From Verrucomicrobiota bacterium (GTDB taxonomy: Bacteria > Verrucomicrobiota > Verrucomicrobiia > Limisphaerales > JACDHS01): DNA of 64,000 nt. Below are positions 137-51,312 of the stretch, piece by piece. A program made the translations under genes and the position numbers. Numbering within the stretch: position 1 is the stretch's first letter; every line of letters begins with the position of its first letter. Where the stretch lies: positions 277-64,276 of the forward strand of contig JACDHS010000008.1 in the NCBI GenBank assembly GCA_013820875.1. The letters are read 5' to 3'. The notes below the pieces were generated by a model. The model saw only the letters and a list, made by a program, of their open reading frames with translations, was not told where the DNA came from and did no database searches.

Positions 137-464
137 ATCCGGTTTCCCCCGAAAGGGAGGCGTAATCTACAAATGAGATTTCCATGCGTCAACTGGTTTC
201 CTTGAAGTTTTCGCACGACCAACATATGATAGCCCGATCAAGCGCAGCGGAGCCCTCGGTTGCCTCCCTCAGCCCAGCCTCCTACCGGCTGAACTTTGAG
301 GATTAATCCTCGCGCCTTGAAGGGAAGCGAAGTCTATCGCGATTTGCTGGATTTGAGATTGCACGAGGCAAATCCCCTCTTTTGTTACCCCGGATTTCCT
401 CAAAACTGCCAAAAGTAAGGAAAACGGGCTGTTTATCCATTTTTTCGTTCTGTTTTAGAACCCT

Positions 465-801
465 GGTTGGCCAACTTGCCGTCAAAACAGAACGAAAAAG
501 TAGGTAGGTTGGCCAACGAGGTGTCTAAAACGGAACGAAAAAGTAGGTAGGTTGGCCAACGAGGTGTCTAAAACGGAACGAAAAAGTAGGTAGGTTGGCC
601 AACGAGGTGTCCAAAACAGAACGAAAAAGTAGGTAGGTTGGCCAACGAGGTGTCCAAAACAGAACGAAAAAACAGGTAGGTTGGCCAACGAGGTGTCCAA
701 AACAGAACGAAAAAACAGGTAGGTTGGCCAACGAGGTGTCCAAAACAGAACGAAAAAGTAGGTAGGTTGGCCAACCAGGTGTCTAAAACAGAACGAAAAA
801 G
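465..801. repeat. 43-bp tandem repeat array (7 full units plus partial) with GTTGGCCAAC palindrome
   Basis: Unit AAAACAGAACGAAAAAGTAGGTAGGTTGGCCAACGAGGTGTC(C/T) starts at 484, 527, 570, 613, 656, 699, 742, 785; an extra GGTTGGCCAAC at ~465. Confidence 0.97.
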
Positions 802-925
802 TTGCAATTCGCAATTTGAAGCGGAATCGAGTTCGTCTCGACACGAGGCTCCGCTACAGAGAGATTTCCTGTGAGTGATCGGCTATAGACTGAATGCCGA
901 CCACATTCTGATCTTCAAAATTTTT

Positions 926-1938: not shown

Positions 1939-2952
1939 TCAAATGGATTCTTTCCCTGGAAAATATTTGCTGGTTTCGAAAAGGTTAAGTGCTGGCAGGC
2001 GCGACTTGAGTTGATCTGAGAGGGCTTTGACTTCGGTTCGGCTGCGCCGCGTCAGGAAAAAGTTTAAAAACCGGAACGGTGGTGTCACGAGATGGATTAA
2101 GTGATTCGTCTCGATCAGACCCGCATCGGTGATGTGGTAGAATGCGTAGCCGAAATCTCGAAGCATATCCGCGAAGGCTGGTTCTTGTTCAAACAACACT
2201 TCAACGATGAGGTCGGGCCGGTGCCTGGAGAGGGTCTGCTCTCCGCCATCGAAGAAGGCTTGTTCGTGGCCTTCAATGTCCACTTTGATAAAGGCTGACC
2301 CTGCGATTGGATTCTGTTCAATGTAATCATCCATCGAACAGGTCTGCACCTCGATGGAATCCGTCTGCACAGTGTAGTCGGGCTGGAAATTTTCTGTGAG
2401 CGAAGCGCTCATGTCGGATTCACTCAGGTGAAGGGTCGCGGAGCCAGTGCTGTCGGAGATGGCGTATGGTTCGCACCGGATGTTCTGCGCCTGGTTGACG
2501 GAAATGTTCTTCTGAAAAGTGGCGTAGTTTTTTGGATTTGGCTCAAAGCTGATGATCCGGAGGCGCGGGTGCAACGTTCCCAGTGCCAGTGAAAAAAAGC
2601 CGATGTTCGCTCCAATATCGAAAAAGGTTTCTCCCGTTTCCGCAAGGGTCTCCAGGAGCGAACGGGTAATCGGTTCATAAAAGTCGCCACCATGCCAAAA
2701 CAATTGGAAGCTCAGGTAATTGTCATCTGGCTTCGTGAGTTTGAACCCGGAACGGTTGCGGAACTGAATCGAAACAGCGCGATTCTGGAAGCAACCTTCG
2801 CTGGTGCGAATTCCGAGGCGGCGGAGGTATTGTTTGCTGCGGGGCAGTGCCTGGGCGATTTCCGAAGTGCATCTCCCAATGTTTTTCTTCAACAGTGCTT
2901 TCATGGTTGTGACAGGCGAGTGAACAAACGCCGCTTCCATTGAAACGAGCAA
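1939..2952 (-). CDS. FkbM family SAM-dependent methyltransferase
   Basis: FFDIGANIGFFS, SFEPNP and FIKVDIEGHE motifs. Confidence 0.9.
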   Translation of the reverse strand: MLVSMEAAFVHSPVTTMKALLKKNIGRCTSEIAQALPRSKQYLRRLGIRTSEGCFQNRAVSIQFRNRSGFKLTKPDDNYLSFQLFWHGGDFYEPITRSLLETLAETGETFFDIGANIGFFSLALGTLHPRLRIISFEPNPKNYATFQKNISVNQAQNIRCEPYAISDSTGSATLHLSESDMSASLTENFQPDYTVQTDSIEVQTCSMDDYIEQNPIAGSAFIKVDIEGHEQAFFDGGEQTLSRHRPDLIVEVLFEQEPAFADMLRDFGYAFYHITDAGLIETNHLIHLVTPPFRFLNFFLTRRSRTEVKALSDQLKSRLPALNLFETSKYFPGKESI

Positions 2953-3265
2953 ATGGTCTTGGTTTTTTCTTCGCCATTCTCCACCTGTAGAACAGGTCTG
3001 CGATCGGGGAAAGTTAAACGCTACCCGATTGCGCTTTAGTGGGATTGAGTAATCTGGAGCGAGAGCAGACCTCTCTGCTATCGGGTTTTACAGCTTTGCG
3101 GCTGTTCTAAAAATGAAAGCGAAACACTTCTTATTATAATCGCGAGACATCATTGTAATGCGCCCGTTGTTCTTTGTTGTATATCGTAAGCACGAAGGAC
3201 AGATTCATGCGTTGGACTACGATGAAAACTAAATTTCCATTTCCAGTGGCGGCTATCTCGACACC

Positions 3266-8331: not shown

Positions 8332-8984
8332 GCGGAACATCAAATTGGAATCCGGAGCGTTTTCACCATGCAACAATGCAACAATTCACTCCAGATGTTT
8401 GAACTCCACGCGCAGGTCGTTTGCGTCGCAATGCAGGATGGCGACGACTCGCGGATCGTTGAAACGCTTTTTGCCGGCGGAACCGGGATTCAGGAAGAGG
8501 GTCTTGCCGATCATCTGGTTGAAGGGCTTGTGGGTATGGCCGAAAACAACGACGTCGGGTTTGGCAAGAAGGAGCCTGCGCTGGAACGTTTCTGAAGGAT
8601 TATGAATATCCACGATGTGATGGATCATGAATTTGCGCCCGGCGAGTTCGATGACTTCGGTTTCGCGTAACGGCAGGCCATCATCGGTGTTGCCATAGAC
8701 GGCAGTCACCGGCGCGATCTGCTCTAATTCAACGATGATATTGGATCGGCCGACATCGCCCGCATGAAGGATGTGATCCACACCGGCGAAAAGTTTTTCG
8801 ACCTGCGGATCAAACCAATTGTGCGTATCAGAAATGACGCCGATCTTCATGTAGCTGGACATGAATCCAAGTAAAGACGGAGAGAGACGTGAATTGCACG
8901 AATTTTCACGAATGGGGAAAGGAGGGTTACATGGATGAATGGTTGCATGGTGAAAACGCTCCGGATTCCAATTTGATGTTCCGC
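8332..8984. repeat. Perfect 43-bp inverted repeat pair (8332-8374 / 8942-8984) bracketing one gene
   Basis: GCGGAACATCAAATTGGAATCCGGAGCGTTTTCACCATGCAAC and its exact reverse complement; imperfect homology extends outward (GTTGGGAAG at ~8314 / ~9003). Confidence 0.9.
8386..8850 (-). CDS. Metallophosphoesterase (YfcE/MJ0936 family)
   Basis: MKIGVISDTHN, HAGDVG, GNTD, FGHTHKP, LNPGS calcineurin-like motifs; start reassigned to ATG 8850. Confidence 0.92.
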   Translation of the reverse strand: MKIGVISDTHNWFDPQVEKLFAGVDHILHAGDVGRSNIIVELEQIAPVTAVYGNTDDGLPLRETEVIELAGRKFMIHHIVDIHNPSETFQRRLLLAKPDVVVFGHTHKPFNQMIGKTLFLNPGSAGKKRFNDPRVVAILHCDANDLRVEFKHLE

Positions 8985-9175
8985 CTTGCAGGCGCTTCCC
9001 AACTGTGCCAGCCATTGAACTATGTAACTCCTCCTTTCTCCATTCGTGAGAATTCCTGTAATTCGTGTCTTAATTAACACCCCTTTTCCGATGCAAACTT
9101 TGCTTCCGCGAATTATGATGCATCTGCCTTGGTTTGAATATTGGCAGTGCGCGCAGTGTCCAAGGCTTGTCTTTT

Positions 9176-13038: not shown

Positions 13039-13076
13039 CTGCAACTGGAGCGGTTTGTCCCGGTGACGGGAGACTT

Positions 13077-13117
13077 AATCATGTGGCAGAACATCGCGTC
13101 GCGCAGTTTCGGTTCAA
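13077..13117 (-). repeat. Displaced copy of the DUF1015 3' end (att-like)
   Basis: AATCATGTGGCAGAACATCGCGTCGCGCAGTTTCGGTTCAA encodes EPKLRDAMFCHMI on the minus strand, identical in protein to the end of 24014-25228. Confidence 0.9.
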
Positions 13118-13126
13118 TAAAGAGGT

Positions 13127-13243
13127 CGGGGAGACCGGCGGGAGCCGATCTTCAAGGATGACGCGGATCATCGTTGTTTTCTCAAGACGCTGGGAGAAGC
13201 GTGCCTGCAAACGGATTGACAGGTGCATGCCTTCTGCCTGATG
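13127..13243 (+). pseudogene. Relic of a REP-associated tyrosine transposase (RAYT, Y1/HUH family)
   Basis: Reads RGDRREPIFKDDADHRCFLKTLGEACLQTD*QVHAFCLM, matching the RG..R..IF.DD.D...FL..L.....W..HAYCLM.NH.H N-terminus; TGA at the conserved Trp position; breaks off before the HUH motif. Confidence 0.8.
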
Positions 13244-22513: not shown

Positions 22514-22670
22514 GGACGGAATGAACGCATGCCGTTTCAATGTGGGGGCTCTGCCGCATAAATGCGGCGTTCCGGGCGCGCGGAGGAACGCCGCCTTCAG
22601 GTGCCTTCGGGCGGCAGTATCGGCGTCTTCCGAGCTTGCGGAAATGAGATACGATTTAGAAGATGCCCGC

Positions 22671-23024
22671 ATGGCCCAGGAACATTCGCCTAAAACAATT
22701 CCGCTCAAGGTTCGCCGATGGAAGACGGATGACGTGTTTCTCATGTTGAAGGATCCATTCAGGCAACAGATCCTGCGGTCGCTCGCAAACGGCGAAGCGA
22801 AAACGGGGATGGAACTGAACGCCGCTTCAGGACGGACACGCCACACCTACCTCAAACACCTGACGGCGCTGTGTAAGGTCGGACTCCTGGTTAAAAAGGA
22901 GAACCAAAATGATCGTCGACTACTTCTTTACGGTTTGGCTCCAGGCGTCAGCGTGTGTAACACGGACGATGGCATGACGATGGACTTCGGTTGCTGCATG
23001 CTGCGGTTTGCCCAATTGAAATAG
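22671..23024 (+). CDS. Winged helix-turn-helix (ArsR/MarR-like) DNA-binding protein
   Basis: LKDPFRQQILRSLANGEAKTGMELNAASGRTRHTYLKHLTALCKVGLL...DRRLLLY pattern. Confidence 0.75.
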   Translation: MAQEHSPKTIPLKVRRWKTDDVFLMLKDPFRQQILRSLANGEAKTGMELNAASGRTRHTYLKHLTALCKVGLLVKKENQNDRRLLLYGLAPGVSVCNTDDGMTMDFGCCMLRFAQLK

Positions 23025-23200
23025 GGCCAGGATAGCAGCATTTCACGGATAAACAGTTCGGGCGCTTTCTGCCGCCAGAAATGCGGCGGCACTTTGGGTT
23101 CACCCGCTGTTGCACGGAATTGTTTTCAGCAAAGGTTGGGCGAACCGAAATCCGGGGCGCTCCGAGGGCTTGCAAGCTAGGTAAACCCGTTTTCGTCCCA

Positions 23201-23520
23201 TTTTGCTGAAAAATAAGTTAACGAACACCTGCGCTAACCCTTCTTTCCGGAAGAAAAAGTTAACGACCTCATGTGATGAAGGATCTTTATGGAAAGAAAA
23301 GTTAACGAATGGCCTGCCGAAGGTTGGTTTATGGAAAAATTAGTTAACGATCACACACAACGAGTGCCTTTTCCGGAAGAAAAAGTTAACAAATGCATGC
23401 GAGAACCCATTATTCCGGAAATAAAAGTTAACGACGGCATGTGATGAAGGATCTTTACGGAAACAAAAGTTAACGATGGCATGTGATGAAGGATCTTTAC
23501 GGAAACGAAAGTTAACGAAA
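23201..23520. repeat. 42-bp-period array: 8 GTTAAC-centred conserved motifs with 19-bp variable linkers
   Basis: GTTAAC at 23217, 23259, 23301, 23343, 23385, 23427, 23469, 23511; conserved TTT(C/A)(C/T)GGAA-N-AAAGTTAACGA. Confidence 0.95.
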
Positions 23521-23760
23521 TTTCTGTTTAGAGACTTTTGGAGGGCGGAAAAGCGCCGAAATCCATGTATTCGGCGGTTTTTTTGTCAGGAATTGACGTG
23601 AAATGTGTGTTTACGAGTTTTTGCAGTGTGTTTTGGCGGTGCTTTTCGGGTTAGTGGGCTTTCGTTGGAATGATCTCAAATCCGGCAGTTCAATACCGCT
23701 AATCTACGCTAATGACCGCTAATCAGAGGGGGGATTGCGAAGAAGGCCGATTGAAAAGCC

Positions 23761-23851
23761 AACCACCTGTTGGGTGAAGTCCTTGTTTCGCCTAACCACT
23801 TCTCTATTAGCGATTATCAGCGCAGATTAGCGGTTAACTGCGGTTTTTAGG
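23761..23851 (-). repeat. ~90-bp dispersed element, copy 1
   Basis: Reverse complement aligns by eye to 51059-51149 with about 9 mismatches and 2 indels. Confidence 0.85.
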
Positions 23852-24013
23852 TTGAATTGAAAATGGAAACGAAGCCGCCATTCCGCGCCGGAGAAGTAAT
23901 GCATCCTGGCGCAAGTTCCACCCCGTTGTTGGTAATCCATTGTTCCTGTCATCAATGGTGATCTGCTGGGCACACGCGTAAGGACGACGTTTATGGAGTG
24001 CCTTTTTTCCAGG

Positions 24014-25228
24014 CTAAATCATGTGGCAGAACATTGCGTCGCGCAGTTTGGGTTCAAACCAGGTGCTTTTAGGCGGCATGATTCCACCGGCGTCGGAGAT
24101 GCTCATTAAATCTTCGATGCTCGTGGGGAACATGGAAAACGCGCAGGCGTAATCGCCGTTGTTCACCAGTTTTTCCAACTCGGCTGTTCCGCGGATGCCA
24201 CCGACGAAGTTGATGCGCTTGCTCGTGCGCGGATCATCGATGCCAAAGATCGGGTCGAGGACATGTTTTTGCAGGAGCGTGACGTCGAGTTGCTCGATCG
24301 GATCCGTTGTGGTGGCGAATTCCGGGCGGAAATGGAGCGTGTGCCATTGGCCTTTGATGAAGAGTCCGAGTTCGTGTTTGCGCGTCGGTTTGGCAGCGCC
24401 GTTCGGCTGGATGATGAAAACGGCATCAAGTTTCTCGAGCACCTGTTCGACTGTAAGCCCATTCAAATCTTTCAGGACGCGGTTGTAGGGCAGAATCTGC
24501 ATTTGGTTGTGTGGAAAAATCACCGTCAGGAATGAGCCGCTGTTCCCGGCTCCTTTGCGGGATTGATACACCCGGCCTGCGGCAGCACTGCGATGATGTC
24601 CATCGGCAATGTAGAGGAATGGGATCTTCTGAAATTCACTTTCAATCTGCGCAATCATCTCAGGTTCGTTTACCACCCAGGCGGTGTGGCGGACGCCATC
24701 CGGCGCGGTGAGATCCATGTTTGGCATCTCTGCGGTTTTCCTGGTTGCCAGTTCATTGAGCGCATCCACTGCACGATAGGTGAGAAAGACCGGGCCGGTT
24801 TGTGAATTCAACGCTTCAATGTGGCGAACGCGATCATCCTCTTTATCCGGGCGCGTGAATTCGTGCTTCTTGATGATGTCGTTCAGGTAATCTTCGCAAC
24901 TCGCGGCGGCGACCAGGCCGATCTGGCTGTGGTTGCCCATGATCTGGCGGTAGAAATAGAAGCAGGCTGTTTCGTCCTGGCGCAGGGCGCCTTGTTGAAT
25001 CAGGCGATCGAAGTTTTCTTTGCCTTTGGCATAAACTTCGGGCGAGTGAACATCCGTTCCAGCAGGCAGATCGATTTCCGGTTTGCTGACGTGCAGAAAG
25101 CTGAGTGGATTATCTTTAGCCATATCGCGGGCTTCCTCGGATGACATGACATCATAAGGGAGTTCGCAGATTTTATCGGCCAATTCAGGTTTGGGGCGGA
25201 GCGCGGGGAACGGTTTAATAATCGCCAT
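24014..25228 (-). CDS. DUF1015 family protein
   Basis: MAIIKPFPALRP, ELPYDV, HEFTRPDKEDDR, YIADGHHRSAAA, MPPKSTWFEPKLR motifs. Confidence 0.93.
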   Translation of the reverse strand: MAIIKPFPALRPKPELADKICELPYDVMSSEEARDMAKDNPLSFLHVSKPEIDLPAGTDVHSPEVYAKGKENFDRLIQQGALRQDETACFYFYRQIMGNHSQIGLVAAASCEDYLNDIIKKHEFTRPDKEDDRVRHIEALNSQTGPVFLTYRAVDALNELATRKTAEMPNMDLTAPDGVRHTAWVVNEPEMIAQIESEFQKIPFLYIADGHHRSAAAGRVYQSRKGAGNSGSFLTVIFPHNQMQILPYNRVLKDLNGLTVEQVLEKLDAVFIIQPNGAAKPTRKHELGLFIKGQWHTLHFRPEFATTTDPIEQLDVTLLQKHVLDPIFGIDDPRTSKRINFVGGIRGTAELEKLVNNGDYACAFSMFPTSIEDLMSISDAGGIMPPKSTWFEPKLRDAMFCHMI

Positions 25229-50496: not shown

Positions 50497-50888
50497 ATTT
50501 CTCGGGGAAAAAGGTCTGATTCACGACCGGATGGCCATTTTTTTCGGCGGAAAAGTTCAGATCAATAGGTGTTCATGGCTTTTTCCGCCGAAAAAAATCA
50601 AGTGCATAAGGTGATAACGACTTTTTTCGGCCGAAAAAACGAAATCAACAGGTGTTCATGACTTTATCCGGCGGAAAAAACCATTGTCATAAGGTGTTCA
50701 TGACCTTTTTCGCCGGAAAAAACCGATGTCATAAGGTGATAACGACTTTTTTCGCCGAAAAAAACCAAATCAATAGGTGTTCATGACTTTTTCCCGCGAA
50801 AAAAACCGATGTCATAAGGTGTTCATGACTTATTTCGCCGAAAAAACCCGAATCAACAGGTGTAGGTGACTTTTTTTGCGGGAAAAAA
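50497..50888. repeat. 41/42-bp-period array of 8 units with T/A-tract palindromes
   Basis: AGGTG at 50567, 50609, 50650, 50692, 50734, 50775, 50817, 50858; unit approximates AGGTGTTCATGACTTTTTTCGCCGAAAAAAACCGATGTCATA. Confidence 0.93.
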
Positions 50889-51058: not shown

Positions 51059-51149
51059 CCTAAAACCGCAGTTGAACCGCTAATCTTCGCTGATAGTCGC
51101 TAATGGAGAAGTGAATGTGCGAAACAATGACTTCAACCAACAGGTGGTT
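51059..51149 (+). repeat. ~90-bp dispersed element, copy 2
   Basis: CCTAAAACCGCAGTTGAACCGCTAATCTTCGCTGATAGTCGCTAATGGAGAAGTG...GCGAAACAATGACTTCAACCAACAGGTGGTT; see 23761. Confidence 0.85.
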
Positions 51150-51312
51150 CAAAGATCCAAACGAAGGCAAAAGTCAGGGAGGAGAGTTAGAGTTGTAGAG
51201 TCGCAGCCCGCACGCCGGACCTTCAATAATCCGACAACGTCAACAATTCCAACTGAACTGGTTGACTTGGGGAAACGATGAAAATTGTTCCGGTGGACTG
51301 TTCGGGGAGGTC

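Follow-up and report, generated by a model that had tools for sequence, protein, structure and literature searches.

An eight-unit array at 42-bp pitch beside a divergent winged-helix gene in a Verrucomicrobiota genome: a candidate multi-site DNA-binding platform

The array and the winged-helix gene at the locus

The stretch of DNA analysed here, referred to as the window, comprises 64,000 nucleotides (64 kb) from a Verrucomicrobiota genome (the source genome, G000; a 5.70-Mb assembly in 239 contigs), and the element in question is a tandem array of eight units, each carrying the hexamer GTTAAC, that follows a gene for a small winged helix-turn-helix (wHTH) protein, here designated wHTH-A. A sequence-only reading of the locus had placed the array at 22671-23520, a span which covers both the gene and the array, while the array itself occupies only 23202-23518. 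The two features are as follows.

22671 to 23024, forward strand: wHTH-A gene, 117 amino acids (aa) (family profile, AlphaFold2, Foldseek)
23202 to 23518, forward strand: array of eight units at 42-bp pitch (cores read directly, Tandem Repeats Finder, shuffles, homologous arrays)

The eight GTTAAC cores lie at 23217, 23259, 23301, 23343, 23385, 23427, 23469 and 23511, where all seven successive steps measure 42 bp, as had been claimed from the letters; when the window was shuffled 100 times with its dinucleotides preserved, this seven-step pattern never appeared. The window has 14 GTTAAC sites, eight of which fall within the array, and Tandem Repeats Finder assigned to the latter a period of 42 bp with 6.6 copies at 70% matches. 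The unit has the form TTT(C/A)(C/T)GGAA-N-AAAGTTAACGA followed by 19 variable bases, such that a conserved site of ~23 bp alternates with a free linker; within the unit, an element termed E2 (TTT-N5-AA, in the forms TTCCGGAA, TTACGGAA and TTATGGAA) is followed by an element termed E1 (AAAGTTAAC-GA) and then by the 19-bp linker. The linkers had been described as divergent, with several related to each other, and this holds: linkers 2, 6 and 7 are near-identical, the pairs 1/5 and 2/3 are visibly related, and the linkers are diverged copies of one another. The dyads GTTAAC and TTCCGGAA, the latter being one form of E2, are both loop-less and cannot form hairpins.

Neither a coding repeat nor a structured RNA finds support as a reading of the array. 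The ORF (open reading frame) listing contains no frame open throughout the array, and a coding repeat of 14 aa has been ruled out because related arrays mix steps of 41 and 42 bp. The predicted RNA fold of the array strand was no better than that of shuffles (z = -1.28); a scan of the window with Rfam at gathering thresholds, together with a tRNA scan, matched only a tRNA-Asn and left the array unmatched, and a promoter scan returned a single weak sigma-70-like match within the array, with no excess over shuffles.

The product of the wHTH-A gene scores below curated cut-offs (27.8 bits against 55 for the ArsR model NF033788, and 18 against 27 for Pfam MarR_2), and its sub-threshold matches are to MarR/HTH_27 and ArsR NF033788. 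A profile of its family retrieved ArsR/SmtB structures from the PDB at E = 1.4e-10. The single-sequence AlphaFold prediction was unusable (predicted local distance difference test score, pLDDT, 48), and the model used here is therefore the one based on a 48-sequence alignment (pLDDT 83.5), in which four helices and a two-strand wing are followed by three extra C-terminal strands predicted to replace the ArsR dimerisation helix. Foldseek matched this model to SrnR, CadC, NolR, SmtB and HlyU with root-mean-square deviations (rmsd) of 1.1-1.5 A across ~70 residues, and TubR was not in the top 50 fold matches. As modelled, wHTH-A is a divergent winged helix of the ArsR/SmtB type. Proteins of the ArsR/SmtB family are known to recognise inverted repeats as dimers, and the predicted fold fits a dimeric binder of dyads. 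The PHROGs and PADLOC libraries returned nothing informative for the module, the only PADLOC match of the wHTH being a weak one to the winged helix of Csa3 (E = 3.4e-5). Members of the wHTH family are rare: in a library of 1.84 billion representatives they make up only 142 clusters at 50% identity. Proteins of ~220-280 aa with two wHTH copies, which may be fusions of wHTH-A with its paralogue wHTH-B or tandem genes read through, were also seen, at C118:19602-20444 of the source genome and as P0006, P0011 and P0012 in the representative library.

Homologous modules, site anatomy and surroundings

In the source genome the wHTH family has eight copies at seven loci, and hidden Markov models (HMMs) of wHTH-A and wHTH-B run against all ORFs found no loci beyond these seven. 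Five of the eight copies lie within 200 bp of a 41- or 42-bp array (in the window and on contigs C75, C32, C229 and C27), where the chance of at least five doing so is ~5e-6, the arrays with 200-bp margins making up 3.9% of the genome; as to the others, one copy opens a contig and a tandem pair has an array ~1 kb away. When 60 related genomes were searched, confident homologues were confined to the five other members of the same family-level group (G001 to G005, where G001 is the same-genus genome), at 2-16 copies each, with weak matches in a few more. Of the 17 good homologues in these relatives, 15 are accompanied by a 41/42-bp array at a distance of ~50-350 bp and the other two abut contig ends. 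The sequence-only reading had suggested looking for wHTH homologues beside similar arrays elsewhere, and the outcome is strongly positive: the adjacency of gene and array is conserved across at least five genomes.

The distribution of the arrays follows that of the genes. A triple occurrence of AAGTTAAC at 40-44 bp pitch was found only in G000, G001, G002, G004 and G005, the genomes with strong wHTH matches; the order's 55 other genomes lacked it, and the reversed control pattern gave zero matches. When 185,579 species were scanned (one genome each), homologues of wHTH-A or wHTH-B flanked such arrays only in metagenome-assembled genomes (MAGs) labelled Verrucomicrobiales or Limisphaerales. The same scan brought up GTTAAC arrays of 7-11 cores at exact 41- or 42-bp steps in unrelated phyla, with no such homologues beside them (L136, L150 (Geomonas), L138 (Aerococcaceae) and L162 (Prevotella)).

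The complete form of the module has been found in G004 and G005, where wHTH-A (105-123 aa), an array of 6-10 units and wHTH-B (127-145 aa) follow one another on one strand. This wHTH-B is of the type found on contig C27 of the source genome, with the C-terminus ...DFGF-VARLSADGN, and no conserved third gene adjoins the five complete modules. The 21 GTTAAC arrays collected consist of these five, five with wHTH-A only, five with wHTH-B only and six orphans, several of the incomplete ones being cut by contig ends. By comparison, the ancestral unit would have consisted of wHTH-A, leader, array and trailer, and wHTH-B on one strand, and the window appears to be a copy that has retained wHTH-A and the array and lost wHTH-B. 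In the intact modules, and at most loci of distant paralogues, the array lies upstream of a wHTH gene. GTTAAC arrays accompany all six of the closest wHTH-A homologues as opposed to three of 12 distant ones (Fisher p ~0.005, by hand); the more distant paralogues adjoin arrays with other cores, and those on C32 and C229 have a common array family. Directly downstream of one complete module, at L034 (G005:C360) 2913-3236, there is a classical ArsR-family gene of 107 aa.

Within the source genome, blastn with the window array retrieved three sister arrays (C27:39210-39648, C93:27016-27351 and C173:18811-19161), and the GTTAAC family has only four loci there. The C27 and C93 arrays have eight cores each at an exact spacing of 42 bp, and their linkers are unrelated from unit to unit yet the same in set and order in the two arrays, C93 being a ~570-bp gene-less copy of the leader, array and trailer of C27. 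In the orphan array on C173, half of the units carry GTTACC, a drift that fits what relaxed constraint would give. The C27 array is flanked upstream by a gene that passes the NCBIfam model NF047646 for REP (repetitive extragenic palindromic)-associated tyrosine transposases (RAYT; 85.3 bits, cut-off 80), and downstream by a gene for a 128-aa protein with 32% identity to the window wHTH (E = 2e-15).

A logo pooled from 125 units of the 21 arrays in five genomes gave the consensus ATTT-N5-AA-N2-3-AAAGTTAAC-RA, in which the TTT and AA brackets and E1 (AAAGTTAAC) are near-invariant. The five bases inside E2 carry much information in any one array and little in the pool, and are thus array-specific (CCGGA, CATGC, TGCGG, GGACA, TCGAG, ATAGA and AGGGT, for example), while the linker carries almost no pooled information. 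All of the ~115 core-to-core steps across the 21 arrays measure 41 or 42 bp. The step pattern 42,41,41,42,41,41, a super-period of 124-125 bp over three units, is common to several arrays and is kept between paralogous ones; arrays of this kind were noted at C402, C256 and C289 of G005, at C244 of G004 and at 50567-50888 of the window.

Paralogous arrays agree with the idea, put forward in the sequence-only reading, that selection holds the site and the pitch as opposed to the linker. Per site, the 25-bp core has 5-6 times fewer substitutions than the 17-bp linker (core vs linker, 5/200 vs 19/136 in one pair of paralogues, p = 1e-4; 7/175 vs 23/119 in another, p = 4e-5), and AAAGTTAAC is invariant across genera. 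One example of change in concert is found in G005, where the arrays on C402 and C289 differ in E2 (CATGC vs CCCGG) in all seven units and retain the pitch pattern and some unit-specific linkers; this concerted switch fits co-evolution with a binding protein. On the protein side, alignments show that wHTH-A has a conserved recognition-helix region (G-x-RRH-xx-LKH) irrespective of which E2 its array carries, and that wHTH-B has an insertion of ~10 residues ahead of the helix and a more variable helix region. From these comparisons, wHTH-A probably reads E1, and wHTH-B may read E2.

Around the array in the window, the following further features have been identified.

22544 to 22600, forward strand: leader piece with two hairpin-forming inverted repeats (blastn, 88% identity over 51-57 bp to C27:39752-39696 and C93:27445-27398)
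23070 to 23091, forward strand: terminator-like hairpin with a weak T tail, 46 bp past the wHTH-A stop (consensus scan, pattern match only)
23519 to 23545, forward strand: trailer motif aatttctgtttagagac (read in the window, C173, C27/C93 and G005:C590)
23554 to 23584, forward strand: intrinsic-terminator-like hairpin, CGCCGAA, a 9-nt loop, TTCGGCG, G and seven T (sequence reading, minimum-free-energy fold)
24011 to 24057, no strand assigned: right copy of a 47-bp direct repeat (repeat search, 91% identity to the left copy at 13071-13117, 10,940 bp apart)

In the sister arrays on C27 and C93 the leader sits ~50 bp before the first unit, and in the window the wHTH-A gene intervenes. A trailer of the form ..tgtttcgggag.. 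is kept after the final unit in related arrays. The hairpin at 23554-23584, which the terminator consensus scan missed because its loop exceeds 8 nt, ends the window module at the place taken by the wHTH-B gene in the relatives. The 47-bp direct repeats duplicate the 3' end of a DUF1015 gene and bound an island of ~10.9 kb, of which wHTH-A and the array form the final element; the island is absent from the same-genus genome, where the orthologue of window 8386-9015 lies immediately next to the DUF1015 gene. At the left junction of the island, window 13127-13243 on the forward strand holds a relic of a Y1/RAYT-like transposase N-terminus (RGDRREPIFKDDADHRCFLKTLGEACLQTD*QVHAFCLM) with an in-frame stop ahead of the HUH region. 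Between the array trailer and the DUF1015 gene, at 23660-23860, lies a ~190-bp palindromic 'gctaat' dispersed repeat that resembles a miniature inverted-repeat transposable element (MITE); over 100 copies of it, complete or partial, are present in the genome, another of them at 51060-51170 of the window.

The class of 41-43 bp arrays

The array belongs to a much larger class. Tandem Repeats Finder reports four arrays with periods of 41-43 bp in the window and 225 of at least three copies in the whole assembly of the source genome, and a sequence-independent autocorrelation over lags of 20-80 bp found 274 regions with a best lag of 41 (120 regions), 42 (114) or 43 (40), the neighbouring lags being almost empty (one region at lag 40, none at 44 and one at 45). 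This corresponds to about one array per 21 kb. Clustering by k-mers yielded at least 46 families of units, the period being fixed within each family, and five of these families have 13-23 loci. Only five arrays overlap predicted genes by more than 30%. Around the arrays as a whole, a home-made gene caller found divergent genes in 43 cases, tandem genes in 69 and convergent genes in 27, a mild divergent excess that amounts to no promoter or terminator rule. Inverted repeats with stems of at least 6 bp occur in the consensus of 18 of the 46 families as opposed to 10% of shuffles, such that dyads are enriched and not universal. In samples from other families of the order no array was found in 77 kb and none in 87 kb, where about four were expected in each, while a sample of the same-genus genome held two in 60 kb. 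Contig ends are touched by 46 of the 225 Tandem Repeats Finder arrays; arrays of this class are therefore a main cause of assembly breaks, with the copy numbers of near-identical families probably underestimated, and, since they end 46 contigs, they are a major cause of fragmented MAGs in the lineage.

Arrays of the same family share flanks of ~75-250 bp at up to 23 loci. One such example is the 43-bp family represented at 465-802 of the window, in which a conserved leader precedes a first unit distinct from the rest, and a trailer comes after a degenerate last unit; these arrays are composite dispersed elements. At window 365-802 and 21 sister loci the leader of this family ends in an inverted partial unit, with TTTTTCGTTCTGTTTTAG matching a stretch of the unit in reverse complement, and the array therefore starts at a large dyad centred on GGTTGGCCAAC.

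Certain arrays of the class accompany other genes. Y1 transposase genes occupy seven loci in the source genome, and at three loci a Y1 gene (IS200-like or RAYT) is followed by an array and then by an FN3-like or wHTH gene (C73:13063-15785, C27:38734-40327 and C32:3921-5751), an order that is suggestive and not general. Among the GTTAAC and wHTH loci, the RAYT gene at the C27 sister array and the Y1-like gene upstream at C32 have no counterpart beside the window array or the modules of the relatives, and RAYT is not favoured as a general partner of the arrays, no Y1 gene being present at the wHTH loci of the relatives. A second family linked to the arrays comprises proteins of ~305 aa that are helical in the N-terminal part and match FN3 weakly in the last 90 residues; they have no Pfam or NCBIfam match and are encoded at ~50 loci in the source genome, for example:

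C73:13063-14659, C229:15972-17724 and C12:18297-19777: loci of the ~305-aa family

These genes stand solitary among unrelated neighbours. At 26 of the ~50 loci a 41-43 bp array lies 0-1.5 kb upstream, mostly within ~500 bp and drawn from many unit families, and at least nine further loci abut a contig end on the upstream side. At least 38 copies of the family are present in each of G000, G001, G002, G004 and G005, as opposed to 0-7 elsewhere; in the relatives, an array was found upstream at eight of 15 loci and downstream at none of the 15.

Interpretation and comparison with known systems

Taken from comparison of sequences, the array in the window is on balance probably the cognate multi-site DNA-binding platform of a lineage-specific pair of ArsR-like wHTH proteins, one of which is encoded beside it, because the gene-plus-array unit recurs in several related soil Verrucomicrobia; the specific roles that the array might play downstream are held with far less confidence. 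In the proposed mechanism, ArsR-type dimers would occupy the loop-less dyad GTTAAC in each unit and, because 41-42 bp corresponds to four helical turns, would all lie on one face of the DNA. Neighbouring dimers would touch, perhaps through the extra C-terminal beta-sheet, and these lateral contacts would in turn lead to a one-sided cooperative nucleoprotein filament or ring of ~330 bp. The most probable outcome would be that the gene downstream of the array (wHTH-B in intact units) is insulated or is switched cooperatively, and that the module regulates itself; switch-like control or insulation of the downstream wHTH gene and of the module would be the most economical role, since the array lies upstream of a wHTH gene in intact modules and at most loci of distant paralogues. 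Orphan arrays that carry this E1 would be occupied in trans.

Several points weigh against this interpretation. The source genome has ~240 arrays without a wHTH of this family nearby, and the shared pitch therefore needs a cause beyond the wHTH protein. Co-duplication alone can yield conserved adjacency and the matching of paralogues to arrays, and a Mantel test of wHTH similarity against array 7-mer similarity, a crude metric that the linkers swamp, gave a null result (r = 0.008, p = 0.46). There are also several orphans among the GTTAAC arrays. The window array lies downstream of wHTH-A with a terminator-like hairpin between them, and simple autoregulation from a promoter-proximal operator is therefore unfit for this copy. 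The division of roles between wHTH-A with E1 and wHTH-B with E2 has nine sequences as its basis. Short-tract gene conversion between units could keep the cores alike and give the E2 switch without selection; because conversion seeded in the cores could explain the other patterns, only the cross-genus invariance of E1 is counted here as firm evidence that selection has acted.

A broader view, offered tentatively as one that could well be wrong, is that the wHTH-array module is the first readable case of a lineage-wide system set by geometry as opposed to sequence. Genomes of one family of Limisphaerales-like Verrucomicrobia would each hold hundreds of such arrays, in which units of almost any sequence would be repeated every 41, 42 or 43 bp about 6-10 times, and each unit family would serve as the address for its own sequence-specific binder, the wHTH A/B pairs forming one set of these. 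A common four-turn scaffold, or the machinery that builds the arrays, would fix pitch and length, and the arrays would serve as switches, each with its own address, upstream of gene families that have expanded, one example being the ~305-aa FN3-like family with its 50 copies.

Another reading takes the array for a dispersed repeat, selfish or neutral, of REP/BIME (bacterial interspersed mosaic element) or pneumococcal BOX type, built of leader, tandem modules and trailer and spread through the genome, perhaps by Y1 transposases of the RAYT/IS200-like kind, with the wHTH genes as passengers or neighbours and the cores kept alike by gene conversion. This would account for the membership of the array in a class of at least 274 arrays and at least 46 families with common flanks, for the gene-less copy on C93, for the RAYT gene directly upstream of the C27 array and the Y1 genes that precede the C32 and C73 units, and for the RAYT-like relic at the opposite end of the window island, and the A-(B)n-C build is also that of BOX elements (PMC3049150). 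We nevertheless regard it as unlikely: in the GTTAAC family, AAAGTTAAC is invariant across genera while E2 and linkers drift, something that conversion within arrays cannot hold; the four loci of the family in the source genome, the lack of a Y1 gene adjoining the wHTH modules of relatives, and units with neither a REP-type hairpin nor a GTAG/CGTC tag all speak against it, as do the unit order and pitch pattern kept in paralogous arrays, which mark them as stable and not rapidly turning over, and a wHTH adjacency far above chance. Improbable to a further degree is a centromere-like or chromosome-structuring element, where the wHTH would be a binder like TubR, ParR, SopB or StbA and the arrays would pair, anchor or segregate DNA. 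The geometry matches that of F sopC, whose 12 direct repeats of 43 bp each hold a 16-bp inverted repeat bound by SopB (PMC3177203), TubR binds the two iteron types of tubC and spreads into a ring (PMC6009700), and StbA is reported to work without an NTPase (nucleoside triphosphatase) of its own (bioRxiv 10.1101/2022.04.29.490116); the arrays with the same E1 are scattered over the chromosome and could be bridged, and ~7-8 units per array is a recurrent size. Set against this are the five complete modules, beside which there is no conserved NTPase or third gene, the 3-16 copies per chromosome, the position of the window copy within an accessory island, and the place of TubR outside the top 50 fold matches.

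The sequence-only reading had offered, beside a wHTH-binding array, a repeat-spacer RNA array of CRISPR or TIGR (tandem interspaced guide RNA) type, in which 23-nt repeats and 19-nt spacers would be processed to guide-like RNAs. The regular 23+19 alternation invites such a comparison, as do the unique look of the C27/C93 linkers, the leader, the degenerate terminal unit and the terminator-like hairpin after the array, and the weak match of the wHTH to Csa3. Yet the linkers are diverged copies of one ancestor and keep the same order in paralogous arrays, the 'spacers' are identical in most arrays of the 41-43 bp class, the fold is not stable and has no Rfam match, the conserved dyads are loop-less, and no cas-like gene lies beside the modules read. 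An RNA array is accordingly very improbable here: while the binding array has gained comparative support, this second suggestion found none in the linkers, the fold or the dyads.

If the binding model is true, the module would be a compact system in which two wHTH paralogues and an eight-site array phased at four turns evolve together, with one site element frozen and one drifting in concert, and it would offer a tractable case of protein-DNA co-evolution and a model of a cooperative nucleoprotein filament. The module would also be the first functional handle on an undescribed array feature of soil Verrucomicrobia; full-text searches found no published description of these arrays, those for Verrucomicrobia tandem repeats leading only to general REP papers. 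The most interesting point is the sharp quantisation at 41, 42 or 43 bp across unrelated families; the near-absence of lags 40 and 44 calls for a molecular ruler.

Among known systems, those that the module most resembles in arrangement are sopC/SopB and tubC/TubR, which likewise have tandem direct repeats, each with a dyad, next to the gene of a small dimeric DNA-binding protein (here predicted, and compared by sequence only). The likeness to TubR lies in a small winged-helix protein that reads two iteron kinds and forms a ring, and that to sopC in the 43-bp unit of about four helical turns. Unlike partition centromeres, the five complete modules have no ParA, ParM or TubZ gene beside them, and the module is chromosomal, present in 3-16 copies per genome and built with two wHTH paralogues at the flanks of the array; its protein is ArsR-like with a predicted C-terminal beta extension. 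Centromere and iteron arrays with their binding proteins would thus be the nearest functional analogues, and since the module has no motor gene and is chromosomal and multi-copy, it is not placed among them. With the ArsR/SmtB repressors (SrnR 7p6f, CadC 1u2w, NolR 4omz and SmtB 1r22), wHTH-A has the winged-helix core in common; it differs in the predicted three-strand C-terminal sheet in place of the dimerisation helix, in scoring under the Pfam and NCBIfam cut-offs, and in its presumed target, a phased array of eight sites as opposed to one or two operators.

As with REP/BIME-RAYT systems (PMC3733652), the arrays are intergenic, dyad-bearing, lineage-specific and partly clustered, with hundreds of copies, and Y1 genes stand by those of C27, C32 and C73. 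The marks of REP/BIME elements are a hairpin of 20-40 nt formed by an imperfect palindrome and, with it, a tag (GTAG or CGTC), both missing from the units of the window array, and the arrays differ from them further in being strictly head-to-tail at a quantised pitch of 41-43 bp, in having at least 46 unrelated unit families for seven Y1 loci, and, in the case of the GTTAAC family, in having a wHTH and not a RAYT as conserved partner. The BOX elements, built as boxA-(boxB)n-boxC (PMC3049150), are likewise dispersed composites in which a leader and a trailer enclose a variable number of tandem modules of ~40-45 bp; they are intergenic and able to affect neighbouring genes (PMC3049150). A BOX-like leader and trailer are common to C27, C93 and C173, but at four loci only, and in the window the leader is split from the array by the wHTH gene. 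While BOX is a single family thought to be a folded RNA or a MITE, here at least 46 families share only the pitch, the dyad signal is at the DNA level, and the GTTAAC family has putative cognate DNA-binding genes at its flanks. CRISPR arrays differ in their unique foreign spacers, a pattern not seen in these linkers, and no cas genes were found among the ORFs at the window locus and the five complete modules, which comprise only the wHTH genes and neighbours unrelated to them, no whole-genome cas search having been made. By these comparisons, the array and its module are best described as a candidate phased multi-site binding array with flanking cognate wHTH genes, and there is a real possibility that the surrounding class of arrays is something new.

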